Notes under the pieces: model-generated | What the model was told of the DNA's origin: nothing | Seen by the model: only the letters and a program-made list of their open reading frames with translations | Databases searched by the model: none | Shown: one piece after another, positions 24,016 to 30,471 of the stretch | Layout of the letters: each line of letters begins with the position of its first letter | How positions within the stretch are numbered: position 1 is the first letter of the stretch | Translations under genes and position numbers: made by a program | Source: a virus | Taxonomy: Duplodnaviria > Caudoviricetes | Length of the DNA: 55,841 nucleotides | Virus record (IMG/VR): IMGVR_UViG_3300038460_000023 | Span: 1 to 55,841 of that record | Strand: one strand, 5' to 3'

Positions 24016-27000
24016 ATGCCTGATGTTAAAACATATAAAGTCGGTAAGGATGTTTTCGATATTCCACTAAAGGAAGAGCAGGATTTCTTAAAAACGTATC
24101 CTAAGGCTACTGAAGTTGAAAGTTATATTTCCGGCAAAGATACCTTTGATATCCCAAAGCAGGAAGTTCAGGATTTCTTAAAAGAATACCCGCAAGCCAA
24201 GCCTTTAAAAAAAAAAGACTCTTCGGGTGTATCTTCAGATACTTCTCAGGAAGATTCTCAATCAGGATTAGTTGGGCCGGAAAGTACATTGAAATCACAA
24301 AATACTGATGGATTCAGGACTGTAGGGTCTCCACAGCAAAAACCACAGTATAATCAGGAAGAGACTTCGCCATCCACTCTTTCTGAAAAACCATTGATAC
24401 AAGCCAATAAAAAAGAAGATAAGATACGCCAGAAGGTTTATGAAAAACCACGATCCGTTGAGGAATTTAATAAGGAATTTTCTATATCACCAGAAGAGAA
24501 TTATAACCAAAACCCGCAAAAAGTATTACAACCAAAGGATCAGGAGGAATTGCTCAATCAGGTAGATTTTAAAAGGTTTCTTAAGCAAAAAAACGATGAG
24601 CAAACGGCTTTTAAGCCGGAGGATAGTTATTTATGGAGTGTTGTTCATGGAATAAATAAGGCTACATCCAATACCTTAAAAGCTATGGACGGAGCCGCAA
24701 GGATACTCAGCGATGTTACTAAAATTCCTATGTCTGTTGCTTTTGGTAAAAGAGGAGAAGTTTTGCATGAAAGCTTAAGTTACTATTCTGGAGTTTATGG
24801 GAAAATGGCAAATAAAATAGATGAAAATCTAAGGAATTCCAAGACTAAAGCACCTGAAAACATAGGCGGAATGCTGGCGGAAGGGGCTGGAAGCGCTCTT
24901 ATAGATCTTCCATTAATGGTCCTTGCACCGGAAACTAAATTATCTTACATCGGAGCAGCAACAGGCGGATTGGTTAAGTCTATTCCTGGCATTGTTCCAT
25001 ACATGGCCACTACCAATGCTCTGAATAAGTATCAAGAATTGGATAGTCAAGAAAACCCAGAAGCCAATAAATTAACTGAAACATTTAAGGCAGCCGGTGT
25101 CGGGGCAGTAGAAGGGGCCTTGATGCATTCTTTCGGGTATTTATCATCCCAAGCTGGCGGATACGTGAAGGGGATTACCAATAATAATTTTGCTTCAAAA
25201 CTAGCGTCATCACTTTCGAGCGGGACTTTGTTTGGAGGCATGACAGCTACCGAACAGTATATGTCAGGAAAGGTAAATCCAAAAGAAATTGTAAGCAGCG
25301 GTATACTGGGCTTAGGAATGGATTTATTGTTAAGCAGACCAGCACGGCAGAATCTTGAAGCAAAACAAAAATCGGCTTCTGATAGGTTCTTTACTTCGTC
25401 TATTGAGGATGTGAATAAAATACACGATCTGCCCAAGACAGTAGAGCAGTTGCGGGAGGATCAGATAAAATTAGATGATAGGATTAAGAAAGAAAAAGAT
25501 CCGAAGAAAAAAGAAGAGTTAAAATTATCATCTAAAACTATCGATGGATATATTGATATAAAAGCAATCGGAAAGCAGATATTGTCTGATCCTGAAGTTT
25601 TCGTAAGAGGCATCCGTGAAGATCCCAAACTGTCCGATCCTGAAAAGGATTTTTATACCGAAAAAGTAAACCAGTTTGTCGCTAAGAATGATCCGAGGAT
25701 TAAAGCTTCAGATCCATTAGTTAAAGAAATTTCAGATGTCGATCGTCAGATTCAGACTTTAAAAGACAATCCATCTATCCCAGAAGATAGTAAGCCTTTA
25801 TTAATCGAAGGACTAGAAGATCGTAAAAAAAGCCTTGCGACTGACGCTAAAAAAGAAATGTCTAAACCTTTAGATATATTTGAATTAAATAAACAAGAAC
25901 AATTAAAAAGTAAAGAGTATGAAAAAGGAAAAAGGAGTATCGGGGAGCAAGGGGACTTACAACCTGTCGAAGCCAAAAACAAGGGTAGGAAAACAAGCTC
26001 CAGCACCCAAAAAGGCCCTAAAATCGAAGATGAAAGCAAGAGGCAAAAGCTGGTAAATAAAAAAGGAGGGAAAAGTGAAAAAGTTAAAAAAGGGAATTAT
26101 CAAGGGGAGCATGGCCCAGATGAAGCCAAAGGGGAAAACGGTCCCAGCGCCTCCGAGAGGATCGGGACAGGTAGTAGTAAAACAGAAACCAAAGTTGAGA
26201 AAGGGTTAGAAGATGCCACTCAAAAAGGGAAAGTCCCAGAAAGTAGTGAGTCAGAACATAAGCGAATTCCACAAGGGGAAGACGTACGCGGCGACCAAGA
26301 TAAAGTTCGGGAAGACAAAGGCGGACAAGCAAGCGATAGCAGTAAGCCTGGAGGAGAAAAGACGGTCCCGGAAGAAATAGAGGAAGTACCAGGGTTTGTA
26401 CCGGAGGGAATGGCTGAACCGGAACCTGCCGGTACGAAAACTGGAAAAGTTGAAATTGGAGAAAAGGCAGAAACTCCGGTAGCGATGAAGAAAATATTGT
26501 CCACTGGAGATAAGAATGTTTATTCAAGGGAGATTAAGAAGGATGGTAAAGAGCTTGGAGAAGTCCATATAGAGGAGAAGCCGGAAGGGTGGGAGGTTAA
26601 ATATGTAATGGTAAATGAGAAAGGGAAGGGGTATGGAAAGCAAATTTACCGTGAATTAAATAAGCAAGCTCAGTCGGAAGGCAAAGTTGTAAAATCCGAT
26701 CGTCCCGATAAGATTTCTGGATCTGCCAAAGGATTATGGGATTCTTTGGTCAAATCAAAGGAGGCAGAAAAAATGCCTGATGGATCATACCGGATGATAG
26801 GAGAAGGAAAGGCGATACCTAAAACTTCGGAACCCAAAATTGGAGGACAGATTGGCTTTAAGGATATGATTAAAAATAATCGTATCGGAGAAATTGTCTC
26901 TAAAGAGTCGGATGGGCGATATAAGGTAAAAACAGAGGACGGTATTATCCATAAGGTAAGTCCTGATAAAATTCAATCAGTAGAATCGACTAAAAAAGCC

Positions 27001-30000
27001 ATAAAAGAAACCGAACAAAGCCTGGAGAACAAAGCGTCAATACCTGTTTCTACCGAACCTAAATCGGAGCCGGTTAAAGCTTCAGCTATTATAAGCAAAC
27101 TGTCAAAAGAACTTGGCGTTCCAATAAGGATCGGGAAGATAAGAAAGAAGGCATTAGGAATATTCAAAGTTCATCCGGAAGTTATCAGAACAAAAGAATA
27201 CAATGATTTAGCCACTACGTCTCATGAAGTTGCTCATTTCTTAGATAAGAAATTAGACATATCAAATTTGATCCCCAATGATCTTAAAAATGAATTAAAG
27301 AGTCTCGATTATGATCAATCCAAAAAAAGAGTCAATGAGGGATTTGCGGAATTCGTTCGGCACTATCTCACTGTTGGGGATAGTCAAGATGTCGCGCCAA
27401 AATTTCACGACTATTTTGAAAAGCAAATTTTATCAAAAAACCCTACTGAAAAAAAAATAATCTCGGAAGCGAGAGACCTGATAACAAAATGGAGAGAGCA
27501 AGGCTCTTTAAATCGAGTGCTGAGCCAAGTTGATTTCGATGGTCTTAAGTCTGATTTATCCCTGAAAGAAAAGTTAGAGTCTTTTGATGTAAAAGTCAGA
27601 GGGCGATTTACAAACAGACTATATCCTTTAAAGTATGTTGTAAATAAGATAATCGGAGAAGGTAAAATAAGGCCTAGTGAAAACCCATATGAAATAGCCA
27701 TGAGCGTGGCTAAGACAGCTTCAGCTAAAGCTCGTCAGTTTATCATGGATGGCGCTTTTGATTTTCAATTAAATAAAGTCGGAGAGAGTCTGAAGGACGT
27801 GGTCGCTCCGGTCTCAAAGGATATTAAAAACGCAATTGCGTATGCTTATTCAAAACATGCAATTACCTTATTAGACAGGGGGATAAATCCAGGTATAAGT
27901 AAGGTTGATGCCGAGTACGTATTGAAGAATAATTTCAAGCCTGAGTACGAACAGTTTTCTCAAGATTTTACACAGTGGTCGTCTCACCTGGTAGATTACT
28001 TGGTAGATGCCGGAGGGTTGTCCAAGGATGCGGCTGAGACAATGAGAGCGTCAAATCCTTTTTATATTCCTCTTAAAAGATCCTTTGTTGATCAGGGGGT
28101 ATCCGCTGCAACAGGGAGGGGATTTGTTGATTTGGGGAGTCCGATTAAAAAGATAAAAGGTAGCGGAAGGGAGATTGTAAACCCTATTGAATCAATGATA
28201 GCTATGACCGAGCAAATAATAAGCGTTGCTGATAAGGCAAGGGTATCTCGTGCATTGGTGGACATTGCCGACAAGTATCCGGGTTCCGGAAAGTGGATTG
28301 AAAAAGTACCGGCACCGCTAAAAAAGACAATGATTGAACTGGAAGATATCTCTAAGCAAATAGAATCGCTTGGAGGGGACTTGTCAGCAGTAGATAAAAA
28401 TTCACTCATAAATTTATTTTCTCAGGGAGATTACTACGGTAAGGATAATATTGTTTCGGTATATAAGGATGGAAAGAGAGAATTCTATCAATTGCACAAG
28501 GATTTATACGATTCGATGAAAGGATTGGACAATATAACTTTGCCGTGGTTTATTGATAGTACATTCGGGTCCGCTTCAAGGTTAGTTAGGCTTGGAGCTA
28601 CGGGCATCCGGGCTGGATTTGCATTAATAACCAATCCTATTCGAGATTTTCAAACCTTTGTTTTACAGAATGAATATACCGGCACTTCCAAGGTGGGTAA
28701 TGTCGGGAAGGCTATCATAGAAGAGTTGGTTGGCAAAGGGAAGTATACTCAGGCATTTAAAAGATCGGGCGGAGAGATGGCCCAGCCATTGGGCCTCGAT
28801 AGAAAGATGCTAAAAAATACAGTGGAAGAAATTTTAGCAGATGATATTCAGAGAAAAGCGTTGAATATCGTAAAGCACCCTATAGAGGCCTTGAGAAAAA
28901 TACTTTCATTCACAGAGGCCGGGACTAGAATGGCCGAATTCGAATCGGTAATGAAAAAATACGAACCGTTATTCGATAAAGCTAAGTCATATGGAGATTT
29001 GGTTGAGCTTAAGAAGCTGAACGAAGACGCTGCGATTGAAGCTTCGAATGCAGCAAATGAAGTTACGGTCAACTTTAAACGTGCTGGGTCTTACGCATCT
29101 GTCATAAATCAAATTGTACCGTTTTTCAATCCATCAGTTCAAGGTTTAAGCCGAATGGGGAGAACCATCTACGAACATCCGGTAAGATCAGGATTTAGGG
29201 CTATGGCTTGGATGACCGCTCCTACGTTAGCCCTATGGTACATGCATAAAGATGAAGATTGGTATAAAAATCTTCCAGACTGGCAGAAATATGGATTTTT
29301 TAACTTTAAGATCGGCGATGAAATAGTAAGACTACCAAAACCTTTTGAATGGGGATATTTATTTGGCGCAATCCCAGAAGGCATTGCCAATTCTATTTAT
29401 GCTAAAGATCCTATATATTTTAAGAAAGCTGCCGAAGAATCGGTCGGAGCCGTCGCTCCGCCGGCATTACCGGCTTTGGTAAAACCAGCAATGGAAGTGT
29501 ATTTTAACTGGGATATATTTCGGGATAGTCCTATTATATCAATGAGCCAAGAAGGACTCCTGCCTCCTCAGCAATATACCTCTCATTCGAGTAAATTAGC
29601 AATTGAGCTTGGCCAAGTCCTGAATGTAGCTCCATTAAGCATAGATCATTTACTTAGTGGTTACACCGGCGGACTTGCCACTGATATCTTAAATGCTTTT
29701 CCGAAGCAGTATAAAGAAAAAGCTGATTATCCTATCATAGGGAGATTGTTTACCCGAACAAGTACAACGGGATTAGGAGGGGTGGCCGTTCAAGAGTTTT
29801 ACGACCAATATAAAAGATTATCATCTGTCGAGAAGACTTTGAATTTCGGAGAAAAAAATAAAATAAATCCAAGGAGTATAACTGATAATGACAGAAGGCT
29901 TTTTAAATATAAATATTTGATAAGCAAAACAGCCAAGGAGATTACGGATCTTAGGAATAAATTATCCGAATTGGATAAGGTTAAGATGGATAAGGATATT

Positions 30001-30471
30001 CGTCAAAAGGTTGTAAAAGAGATAAATTTTGCGGCGGTTAAATTAGCTGAAAAAACTCTTAAAACCATAAGATCAGAAAGCGAAGTCCCAAGCGAATATC
30101 AATCTGTCAATGTTATTAATAAGTTGTCTGGAGAGATGACTAAGATAAATGATGTTCTTAAAAAAAGCGGAACTGTCGAAATGAATAAATACATAAGGGA
30201 TAATAATTTAAAAGAACACCTTAATTTTTATGAAAAAAATAAGACAGAGTTTAATAAACTTAAGAGAGTTATAGATTATGTGACTGCAAATAAGACTGAA
30301 GATAAATATGCAGACATTATAAATCAAAATGCAGATTTATTTATGAATTCATATAACTCTAATGATAGATTCAGAGTTACCCAAGATTTAAATAAATTAT
30401 ACTCTAAACTTGGAAAAGAAGGGAAGGCATTGAAGAATCAAAAAGGTAGGGCTCTCAGGGAGTTTAAATAA
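24016..30471 (+). CDS. Large polyvalent ejection protein (GNAT-like, zincin HExxH, LPD38)
   Basis: Duplicated N-terminal 29-aa repeat; KGKGYGKQIY GNAT-like motif; SHEVAH...NEGFAEF metallopeptidase motif; LPDWQK...RLPKPFEWGYLFG LPD38-like region. Confidence 0.8.
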   Translation: MPDVKTYKVGKDVFDIPLKEEQDFLKTYPKATEVESYISGKDTFDIPKQEVQDFLKEYPQAKPLKKKDSSGVSSDTSQEDSQSGLVGPESTLKSQNTDGFRTVGSPQQKPQYNQEETSPSTLSEKPLIQANKKEDKIRQKVYEKPRSVEEFNKEFSISPEENYNQNPQKVLQPKDQEELLNQVDFKRFLKQKNDEQTAFKPEDSYLWSVVHGINKATSNTLKAMDGAARILSDVTKIPMSVAFGKRGEVLHESLSYYSGVYGKMANKIDENLRNSKTKAPENIGGMLAEGAGSALIDLPLMVLAPETKLSYIGAATGGLVKSIPGIVPYMATTNALNKYQELDSQENPEANKLTETFKAAGVGAVEGALMHSFGYLSSQAGGYVKGITNNNFASKLASSLSSGTLFGGMTATEQYMSGKVNPKEIVSSGILGLGMDLLLSRPARQNLEAKQKSASDRFFTSSIEDVNKIHDLPKTVEQLREDQIKLDDRIKKEKDPKKKEELKLSSKTIDGYIDIKAIGKQILSDPEVFVRGIREDPKLSDPEKDFYTEKVNQFVAKNDPRIKASDPLVKEISDVDRQIQTLKDNPSIPEDSKPLLIEGLEDRKKSLATDAKKEMSKPLDIFELNKQEQLKSKEYEKGKRSIGEQGDLQPVEAKNKGRKTSSSTQKGPKIEDESKRQKLVNKKGGKSEKVKKGNYQGEHGPDEAKGENGPSASERIGTGSSKTETKVEKGLEDATQKGKVPESSESEHKRIPQGEDVRGDQDKVREDKGGQASDSSKPGGEKTVPEEIEEVPGFVPEGMAEPEPAGTKTGKVEIGEKAETPVAMKKILSTGDKNVYSREIKKDGKELGEVHIEEKPEGWEVKYVMVNEKGKGYGKQIYRELNKQAQSEGKVVKSDRPDKISGSAKGLWDSLVKSKEAEKMPDGSYRMIGEGKAIPKTSEPKIGGQIGFKDMIKNNRIGEIVSKESDGRYKVKTEDGIIHKVSPDKIQSVESTKKAIKETEQSLENKASIPVSTEPKSEPVKASAIISKLSKELGVPIRIGKIRKKALGIFKVHPEVIRTKEYNDLATTSHEVAHFLDKKLDISNLIPNDLKNELKSLDYDQSKKRVNEGFAEFVRHYLTVGDSQDVAPKFHDYFEKQILSKNPTEKKIISEARDLITKWREQGSLNRVLSQVDFDGLKSDLSLKEKLESFDVKVRGRFTNRLYPLKYVVNKIIGEGKIRPSENPYEIAMSVAKTASAKARQFIMDGAFDFQLNKVGESLKDVVAPVSKDIKNAIAYAYSKHAITLLDRGINPGISKVDAEYVLKNNFKPEYEQFSQDFTQWSSHLVDYLVDAGGLSKDAAETMRASNPFYIPLKRSFVDQGVSAATGRGFVDLGSPIKKIKGSGREIVNPIESMIAMTEQIISVADKARVSRALVDIADKYPGSGKWIEKVPAPLKKTMIELEDISKQIESLGGDLSAVDKNSLINLFSQGDYYGKDNIVSVYKDGKREFYQLHKDLYDSMKGLDNITLPWFIDSTFGSASRLVRLGATGIRAGFALITNPIRDFQTFVLQNEYTGTSKVGNVGKAIIEELVGKGKYTQAFKRSGGEMAQPLGLDRKMLKNTVEEILADDIQRKALNIVKHPIEALRKILSFTEAGTRMAEFESVMKKYEPLFDKAKSYGDLVELKKLNEDAAIEASNAANEVTVNFKRAGSYASVINQIVPFFNPSVQGLSRMGRTIYEHPVRSGFRAMAWMTAPTLALWYMHKDEDWYKNLPDWQKYGFFNFKIGDEIVRLPKPFEWGYLFGAIPEGIANSIYAKDPIYFKKAAEESVGAVAPPALPALVKPAMEVYFNWDIFRDSPIISMSQEGLLPPQQYTSHSSKLAIELGQVLNVAPLSIDHLLSGYTGGLATDILNAFPKQYKEKADYPIIGRLFTRTSTTGLGGVAVQEFYDQYKRLSSVEKTLNFGEKNKINPRSITDNDRRLFKYKYLISKTAKEITDLRNKLSELDKVKMDKDIRQKVVKEINFAAVKLAEKTLKTIRSESEVPSEYQSVNVINKLSGEMTKINDVLKKSGTVEMNKYIRDNNLKEHLNFYEKNKTEFNKLKRVIDYVTANKTEDKYADIINQNADLFMNSYNSNDRFRVTQDLNKLYSKLGKEGKALKNQKGRALREFK
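25919..26056 (+). CDS. Nested +1-frame basic peptide (45 aa)
   Basis: MKKEKGVSGSKGTYNLSKPKTRVGKQAPAPKKALKSKMKARGKSW; A-rich leader and a TATATTTG box at 25875-25882. Confidence 0.4.
   Translation: MKKEKGVSGSKGTYNLSKPKTRVGKQAPAPKKALKSKMKARGKSW
26075..26209 (+). CDS. Nested +1-frame basic peptide (44 aa, GTG start)
   Basis: (M)KKLKKGIIKGSMAQMKPKGKTVPAPPRGSGQVVVKQKPKLRKG; GGAGG lies just upstream. Confidence 0.35.
   Translation: MKKLKKGIIKGSMAQMKPKGKTVPAPPRGSGQVVVKQKPKLRKG
26213..26380 (+). CDS. Nested +1-frame gene of the small basic phage 'MPLKKGKS' family (55 aa)
   Basis: MPLKKGKSQKVVSQNISEFHKGKTYAATKIKFGKTKADKQAIAVSLEEKRRSRKK fits the recurrent MPLKKG.S...IS.NI.E......KQAVAIAL pattern. 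Confidence 0.7.
   Translation: MPLKKGKSQKVVSQNISEFHKGKTYAATKIKFGKTKADKQAIAVSLEEKRRSRKK

Follow-up and report, generated by a model that had tools for sequence, protein, structure and literature searches.

The window analysed here is a 55,841-nt stretch of phage DNA (Duplodnaviria; Caudoviricetes; IMG/VR record IMGVR_UViG_3300038460_000023, a 55.8-kb viral record with an estimated completeness of 79%), the virus being known only from metagenomes of peat, permafrost and soil, among them 13 studies in which the sequence occurs. Within it, a 2151-aa open reading frame (ORF) for a polyvalent-type protein very probably contains a true dual-coding segment, in which a cassette of about 460 nt is read both as part of the giant protein in frame 0 and as three independently initiated small basic proteins in the +1 frame (ORF1, ORF2 and ORF3). 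The original prediction, made from the letters alone, had described three such ORFs inside the giant gene, and their coordinates, frames and spacers of 18 and 3 nt are all as it gave them; its proposal that the +1 frame hides a set of three genes for basic peptides is likewise supported, the predicted pI values being 10.6-12.0.

The frame under constraint was identified by comparison with one close DNA relative, the IMG/VR contig L001 (86% amino acid identity), which aligns without gaps across the cassette region and keeps all three +1 ORFs intact. Substitutions relative to L001 fall on giant-frame codon positions 1/2/3 in the numbers 32/13/89 upstream of the cassette (25300-25918) and 10/10/76 downstream of it (26381-27000), whereas within the cassette (25919-26380) the numbers are 40/11/6 (chi-square, cassette versus pooled flanks, P = 5e-17), the wobble switching from giant-frame to +1 third positions at the cassette borders. 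By the NG86 method, dN/dS in the +1 frame is 0.06 for all three ORFs (0.05, 0.05 and 0.08 for ORF1, ORF2 and ORF3), versus 2.61 for the giant frame in the cassette and 0.03 for the giant frame in each flank, values that are biased by the overlap of the frames and reveal the phase of constraint, not true rates. The +1 peptides differ from those of L001 at 4/45 (ORF1), 4/44 (ORF2) and 3/55 (ORF3) residues. P0001, a relative represented by its protein only (93% identity), differs from the giant protein at 25/155 linker residues versus 117/1978 elsewhere, and three population variants (26134, 26155 and 26176, on contigs of the independent peat run X9) all lie on third codon positions of ORF2. These substitution patterns show purifying selection acting on the +1 frame of all three ORFs; the frame-specific conservation check proposed with the original prediction, run here against L001, found the +1 ORFs free of stops and the constraint in the +1 frame.

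ORF3 is shown to be an intact member of an old, widespread family of small proteins (phrog_2423/DUF6496-like). It matches phrog_2423 over its full length (residues 1-55; E = 5e-9, 37 bits), and the copy in L006 also matches this profile (E = 1e-8). The match of ORF3 to Pfam DUF6496 (PF20106; E = 8.8e-4, 20 bits) falls under the cut-off of 24, and 22 of 41 aligned close homologues match DUF6496 at E <= 0.01 (best 4.5e-8), ORF3 being a DUF6496 relative at the edge of the Pfam model. A collection of 5.8 billion proteins yielded 113 homologues of 49-86 aa (E down to 6e-19), whose conserved N-terminus is the MPLKKG of ORF3, and all 13 invariant columns of the family are kept (M1, P2, N15, I16, E18, H20, T28, K31, G33, K34, A37, Q40 and A43). 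The assignment of the third ORF to a small, normally free-standing phage family, part of the original prediction, is borne out by the phrog_2423 match and the 113 small homologues, and the profile search with the 55-aa peptide, suggested at the time as a check, does find relatives. The AlphaFold2 model, of high confidence, consists of three helices (pLDDT 89.7), and the nearest clusters in the ESM Atlas are viral hypothetical proteins, some of them DUF6496. A tblastn search of the ‘phages’ collection with ORF3 gave weak matches (27 records, best E = 7e-3), and the term ‘DUF6496’ was not mentioned in the main texts of the literature searched. Short contigs from four runs (one of them an RNA run, at depth 134) match only about 37 nt at the start of ORF3 (26208-26244), with 3 differences and unrelated flanks, and one such contig has AAGGAGG just upstream; they probably come from other ORF3-family genes of the same habitats. 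ORF1 and ORF2 are Lys-rich paralogues (50% identity). L001, L006 and L024 each have a homologue of ORF1 nested at the corresponding position, and ORF2 is missing from L006 and L024.

The ORF3 family occurs in several architectures. When viral contigs were scanned with the family alignment, 351 relatives were recovered, from which 80 loci were kept, making 82 loci besides the window when L001 and L006 are included. In 7 of the 82 (L001, L006, L012, L015, L018, L021 and L024; eight contigs with the window), a large ORF contains the whole homologue in its +1 frame; in 8 the homologue is overlapped by the end of an upstream ORF, and in the other 67 it is free-standing or fused in frame. Among the nested cases, the giant protein of L006 (P0003) differs in its N-terminal part, and homologues of ORF1 and ORF3 sit at the corresponding position of its gene in the +1 frame. 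The giant protein of L024 is 36% identical to that of the window, and its gene contains ORF1-like and ORF3-like genes in the +1 frame. By BLASTP, the large ORFs of L012, L015, L018 and L021 resemble the window giant nowhere outside the overlapped stretch. When each nested case was recoded synonymously, only 0-48 of 5000 trials kept an open outer frame, and in pairwise comparisons of the nested contigs the +1 identity exceeded the outer-frame identity in 28/28 pairs. In the 8 overlapped loci, the large ORF upstream has its stop 11-104 nt into the ORF3 homologue, and the two frames stand in the relation seen in the nested copies. Five of these upstream ORFs (in L027, L038, L050, L079 and L080) are about 790 aa long and stop at a TAA formed by the Leu3 codon CTT and the AA of Lys4, a position at which the nested copies use CTC, CTA or CTG; in L067 the upstream ORF covers 104 of the 156 nt of the small gene. 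Seven of the eight overlapping upstream ORFs belong to one family, and so represent few independent lineages. Many free-standing members belong to virion modules, where their neighbours are genes for virion structural and portal proteins and ejection-type genes. In-frame fusions include L023:4001-8164 (+), where the ORF3-like domain is the N-terminal part of a protein with an ART-PolyVal domain (E = 2.7e-13) and a length of at least 1388 aa, longer ORFs with the domain at the N-terminus in L011 and L017, and a 456-aa ORF in L013 that has it internally; a protein search for longer fused forms returned only 9 proteins of 111-334 aa and was uninformative.

The giant frame contains no stop anywhere in 24016-30471, despite 57 cassette substitutions relative to L001. 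When the three ORFs were recoded synonymously with the codon usage of the phage, this frame stayed open in 0/20000 trials (mean 12.5 stops). It is open because T is nearly missing from +1 third positions, which carry T at 6/144 sites in the nested ORFs versus 36% in the genes of the phage. With the nested ORFs of the eight contigs pooled, T is found at 0/265 stop-prone third positions and at 25/446 safe ones; ordinary giant-frame coding has T at 426/1266 third positions. The avoidance of T also at sites where no stop could arise removes codons for F, Y, W, C and S, which fits a translated hydrophilic linker, and the frame-0 reading indeed has 46 G/P/S and only 2 F/W/Y/C among its 155 residues. 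The same bias accounts for the raised GC of the cassette (0.45-0.51 versus 0.32-0.40 in the surroundings), since G and C replace T at third positions. These counts show that selection on frame 0 serves chiefly to prevent stops and to exclude aromatic and Cys codons. The fast evolution of the linker, its absence from a homologous giant protein in L009 and the constraint on openness together indicate that the giant-frame linker behaves as a by-product of the embedded genes, as originally suspected (dN/dS 2.6, versus 0.06 in the +1 frame), being constrained mainly to remain open and hydrophilic. Coordinates are collected in Table 1.

Table 1. Nested cassette, its candidate expression signals and the surrounding gene, in positions of the window.
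Feature	Positions	Strand	Description
ORF1	25919..26056	+	45 aa, ATG, +1 frame; pI 11.0; Lys/Gly/Pro-rich, predicted disordered
ORF2	26075..26209	+	44 aa, GTG, +1 frame; pI 12.0; ORF1 paralogue
ORF3	26213..26380	+	55 aa, ATG, +1 frame; pI 10.6; predicted three-helix phrog_2423/DUF6496-like protein; starts 3 nt past ORF2 stop
Frame-0 reading of the cassette	25918..26382	+	155-aa hydrophilic linker, aa 635-789 of the giant protein
Outer gene	24016..30471	+	2151-aa polyvalent protein; frame 0 runs through the cassette; LPD38 at aa 1747-1896
Candidate internal promoter/5' leader	25855..25932	+	78 nt without substitution relative to L001; includes the TATATTTG box, A-rich leader and ORF1 start
TATATTTG (TAnnTTTG) box	25875..25882	+	candidate -7-type promoter element, 36 nt before the ORF1 ATG; identical in L001
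Shine-Dalgarno-like AAGGAGG	26063..26069	+	between ORF1 and ORF2, with 5 nt separating it from the ORF2 start

In the proposed mechanism of expression, ribosomes would start internally within the T-poor leader and cassette, at the ATG of ORF1 after the A-rich leader, at ORF2 after AAGGAGG and at ORF3 by coupling 3 nt past the ORF2 stop, on a message that would be either the late mRNA of the giant gene or a short RNA started by a TAnnTTTG promoter at 25875. At the start of ORF2, L001 has AAGGAG, and ATG instead of GTG; GGAG-type sites precede the nested ORF3 homologues in L006, L012, L015, L018 and L021. The candidate promoter and leader region is the longest run identical to L001 in 5541 aligned sites (1023 differences), the next longest being 44 nt. 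TAnnTTTG, presumably an expression signal of the Bacteroidota type (the -7 promoter element), is found at 93 places in the window, counting both strands, and the box at 25875 is therefore not significant alone. Nine boxes lie 5-24 nt upstream of starts (8/44 starts), versus about 0.7 expected from the 93 sites; such promoter-like positions include 2023, 5909, 14734, 21951 and 30489 on the plus strand and 36505, 51089 and 52656 on the minus strand. A different TAnnTTTG sequence (TAACTTTG) lies 34 nt upstream of the ORF1-like gene of L024. The box and A-rich leader had originally been named as preceding the ORFs: the box is present, within the longest conserved run, but the motif alone carries no significance, and an internal promoter role of the TATATTTG box is plausible. 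A scan of 25600-26700 for sigma-70 promoters and intrinsic terminators gave 0 and 0 sites, with a consensus that may not fit the host. Metatranscriptome contigs (run X6) match 25300-26368 and 26384-27000 without differences; they are not taken as support, since contigs reveal neither transcription nor transcript ends nor strand, and the library may contain DNA.

Three other accounts of the +1 ORFs would dispense with dual coding by independently started genes. They could be chance by-products of a purine-rich, T-poor linker, since stops need T and all frames would then tend to be open; the region does have only 11% T and an AT skew of 0.5-0.6, and its opposite strand carries a meaningless 147-aa ORF (26084-26527, -), which is most simply a by-product of the T-poverty of the plus strand, few minus-strand stops being possible. 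However, shuffling the codons of the giant frame in the cassette region produced three +1 ORFs of at least 44 aa in 0/5000 trials, the phase of substitution switches to the +1 frame with a dN/dS of 0.06, ORF3 has 113 homologues and has kept every invariant residue, and the scarcity of T is more readily understood as resulting from dual coding, so that chance is extremely improbable. Programmed frameshifting is common in phage structural genes, and A-rich runs such as AAAAAG around 25905-25930 might shift ribosomes from the giant frame, giving truncated giants with basic tails. This is very unlikely: the +1 frame is closed by a TAA at 25904-25906, 12 nt before the ORF1 ATG, which makes entry by frameshifting improbable and argues for independent initiation; every ORF begins with ATG or GTG, ORF3 at the family's own N-terminus; stops separate the three ORFs; and Shine-Dalgarno-like sites lie ahead of ORF2 and of most nested ORF3 homologues. 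The third account denies that the giant ORF is one protein, and sees separate genes for an N-terminal part, for the three small proteins and for a C-terminal part, the last starting from the ATG at 26410-26412 (M799 of the giant protein), with a cassette whose frame 0 is open but not functionally translated. That ATG stands right after GGAGGG, 30 nt past the ORF3 stop, and the surrounding ‘VPEGMAEPEPAG’ is kept in L001 and L006; family members elsewhere stand free between virion genes, and polyvalent proteins are described as modular in PMC5512222. Nevertheless, with no frame-0 stop in the whole of the giant ORF, ribosomes that start at 24016 must read through the cassette; its openness is improbable without selection, as the recoding trials indicate, and is maintained in all 8 contigs and after the 57 substitutions relative to L001; and the avoidance of T at non-stop sites too points to selection on a translated hydrophilic linker. 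The split into separate genes is accordingly improbable, and M799 is a candidate internal start that could yield a separate C-terminal product besides the full-length protein of about 240 kDa.

Several points weigh against dual coding by three independently started genes and a full-length giant protein. The evidence for the three ORFs and for the full-length giant is at sequence level, the virus being known only from metagenomes; the fine-scale test of selection uses L001 as its single close DNA relative, P0001 as its single protein relative, and three population variants, and dN/dS in overlapping frames is biased. ORF1 and ORF2 are predicted to be disordered, with an AlphaFold2 pLDDT of 65.7, no secondary structure and no predicted fold, and a profile search of 1.84 billion representatives gave no credible relatives outside the clade, the 2 matches at E <= 0.001 being unrelated tandem-repeat proteins on inspection. 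The ORF1 start is preceded by the A-rich leader only, and AAGGAGG before ORF2 may not work as a Shine-Dalgarno sequence in this host, since most genes of the phage lack such a site and have A/T-rich leaders. Between the box at 25875 and the ATG there are 36 nt, versus 5-24 nt in the nine promoter-like cases, and in L006 the nearest TAnnTTTG box is 99 nt upstream. The function of the products is read from charge and neighbourhood only, and a comparison of the ORF3 model with the PDB gave 0 matches at E <= 0.001 (best E = 3.4).

The age of the two frames can be judged for ORF3, whose family distribution indicates that the inner gene is old and widespread and that the giant frame is the younger reading across it. 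The original term ‘overprinted’ holds in that two frames are used, but its direction is reversed for ORF3; for ORF1 and ORF2, which have no free-standing relatives, either the inner or the outer frame could be older. The giant protein of L009 is homologous to that of the window on both sides of the cassette and is missing the segment, its aa 627/632 matching aa 637/809 of the window protein; the cassette is thus an indel. One route to its origin would be stop-loss read-through, in which an upstream virion gene lost its stop and read across the small gene or genes into the next gene, T being purged afterwards. The constant frame relation and the overlapped loci favour this route: L027, L038, L050, L079, L080 and L067 are possible intermediates toward full nesting, and one change in the stop-forming CTT codon of Leu3, synonymous for the small gene, removes the upstream TAA. 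Arguments for and against an origin by stop loss are about evenly balanced. The cassette could also have entered a pre-existing linker as an inserted unit (a natural alternate-frame insertion), tolerated while the outer frame remained open, an origin that is possible but on the whole doubtful. It would explain why the L009 homologue lacks exactly this segment and why nested ORF3 homologues occur in the BLASTP-unrelated large ORFs of L012, L015, L018 and L021; the higher GC of the cassette is in keeping with it, and the out-of-frame HNH gene in the ShiLan insertion, as described in PMC11855218, provides a precedent. On the other side, Pfam and PHROGs give no nuclease, recombinase or other mobility function in the three ORFs, a search for flanking repeats found only short two-copy matches and no notable direct or inverted repeats, the GC rise is explained by the replacement of T at third positions, upstream stops within codons 3-4 of the small gene fit stop-loss read-through, and L009 could equally have deleted the segment.

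L009 also contains a 44-aa Lys-rich +1 ORF (L009:4445-4579, +) inside its giant polyvalent-type ORF (L009:1087-6348), which is the one without the cassette. T occurs at 1/44 of its third positions, and the outer frame stayed open in 9/5000 synonymous recodings; no PHROG match was found, and a Pfam match to DUF2188 (E = 0.078) is below threshold. From this codon pattern, the ORF may be a second, unrelated nested gene.

The outer gene encodes a protein in which LPD38 (PF18857; E = 2.4e-33, 116 bits versus a cut-off of 27) is the sole domain recognised by Pfam. It also matches phrog_9854 (E = 7e-75), and a large majority of its 116 homologues carry the PF18857 annotation. Its neighbours are a tail-spike-like 2072-aa ORF (phrog_4636) and a ‘virion structural protein’ ORF (phrog_14478). 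The original description as a giant ejection gene stands as far as an LPD38 polyvalent protein within a virion-structural module goes, the ejection role itself being an inference only. Neither the nucleotide sequence of the giant gene nor aa 601-1100 of its product has a match in the ‘phages’ collection, and a metagenome scan for relatives of the giant protein found one 2134-nt contig, L005, spanning only aa 825-1526, with the cassette not covered. Following the cassette, NEKGKGYGKQIYRELN in aa 801-955 of the outer protein (26416-26880, +) resembles motif A of GNAT acetyltransferases; the matches are not significant (Acetyltransf_7, E = 0.11; hhalign probability 0.1 versus phage acetyltransferases). 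An acetyltransferase gene (phrog_1249) lies 380-1300 nt downstream of the free-standing gene in 17 loci, and L015 has a true GNAT domain right after the nested copy; the gene order of ORF3 followed by a GNAT acetyltransferase was dropped as evidence for the window, since the GNAT-like stretch of the window is not significant.

With regard to function, the basic charge of the products, the virion-module neighbourhood of the family and its in-frame fusion to a polyvalent protein suggest an association with virions or morphogenesis. The products may tentatively be regarded as virion- or morphogenesis-associated basic proteins acting with the polyvalent protein, for example packaged with DNA, though the doubts slightly outweigh the arguments for this role. 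Polyvalent proteins, which unite several domains of unlike activity in one chain, are proposed to be packaged and injected (PMC5512222), and the position of the present outer gene among virion genes is as expected for such proteins. The originally suggested condensation of DNA by basic peptides would be compatible with the charge of the products. Nesting would lock the inheritance and timing of the small proteins to the giant gene.

Embedded genes as such are known in phages, the closest architectural analogue being the embedded spanins (lambda Rz/Rz1), in which a larger phage gene likewise encloses a complete small gene that has its own start and is read in another frame from the same strand. 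In a spanin survey (PMC6139136), spanin pairs are described as separated, overlapped or embedded, stop-loss extension is discussed as a route to embedding, and no single family is reported to span embedded and other architectures; by contrast, the ORF3 family has free-standing, end-overlapped, fully nested and in-frame fused members. The present case also differs from spanins in that the inner genes are three in tandem and their peptides contain no Cys, hence no lipoprotein signal, where spanins have an outer-membrane lipoprotein with a lipobox Cys as inner product, and in that the outer gene encodes an LPD38 virion-module protein, not a lysis protein such as the membrane-anchored periplasmic partner of spanins, making it an analogue of the architecture and not a member of the class. 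The ShiLan insertion similarly hides a gene of a known family in another frame of a stop-free host-frame segment, in that case an HNH endonuclease that lies out of frame in a phage methylase gene, whose host-frame reading is proposed to be a tolerated loop and whose inner translation is left open (PMC11855218). The homing endonuclease there explains its own spread, whereas here the genes encode small basic proteins, with neither mobility function nor element ends found; searches of Pfam and PHROGs with the three ORFs matched no nuclease family at E <= 10, and the cassette is not of the ShiLan type. A synthetic ‘overlapping, alternate-frame insertion’ (OAFI; bioRxiv 10.1101/2024.11.07.622342) is an engineered mirror of the present arrangement, which unlike it is natural, maintained across diverged phages and subject to measurable selection on both frames. 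In classical viral overprinting, as outlined in PMC8227390, a single stretch of DNA yields two proteins, one read in an old frame and the other in a young one that is prone to disorder; the polarity is reversed for ORF3, where an old small gene lies inside and a long newcomer outside. The text of PMC5512222 does not mention ‘overlap’ or ‘frameshift’, uses ‘embedded’ once, for peptidase domains, and describes no alternate-frame genes, and a literature search on polyvalent proteins and overlapping, embedded or nested phage genes found, in main texts, no report of alternate-frame genes in polyvalent or giant virion proteins. The embedded-gene architecture is known as such, and what is notable is the tandem set of three genes, the reversed age polarity of ORF3, the selection on two frames and the recurrence in unrelated giant ORFs.

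These findings expose a gap in annotation, in that gene callers skip genes nested in long ORFs. ORF3 of the window and its nested homologues are missing from the 113 database proteins found, and since nested genes go unreported by gene callers, a conserved phage family is systematically missed wherever it is nested. The cassette is a clear natural case of two-frame selection, in which constraint changes phase at the cassette borders and codon choice in one frame is all that keeps the other open, and it is a natural counterpart to the alternate-frame insertions engineered for gene stabilisation. The existence of free, overlapped, nested and fused forms in one family makes the origin of embedded genes and of multi-domain polyvalent proteins testable, and the link of the uncharacterised DUF6496-like family to virion and polyvalent proteins offers a starting point on its function. 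A more general proposal, speculative and rather unlikely to hold in full, is that the flexible linkers of giant phage virion and polyvalent proteins would be a recurrent, overlooked home of independently translated alternate-frame genes, which would arise repeatedly by stop loss, with the DUF6496-like protein and basic peptides as partners of the injected giant and with other families hidden likewise; the 44-aa ORF of L009 is one candidate. If this were true, nesting would tie the timing, dose and inheritance of the small proteins to those of the giant protein.

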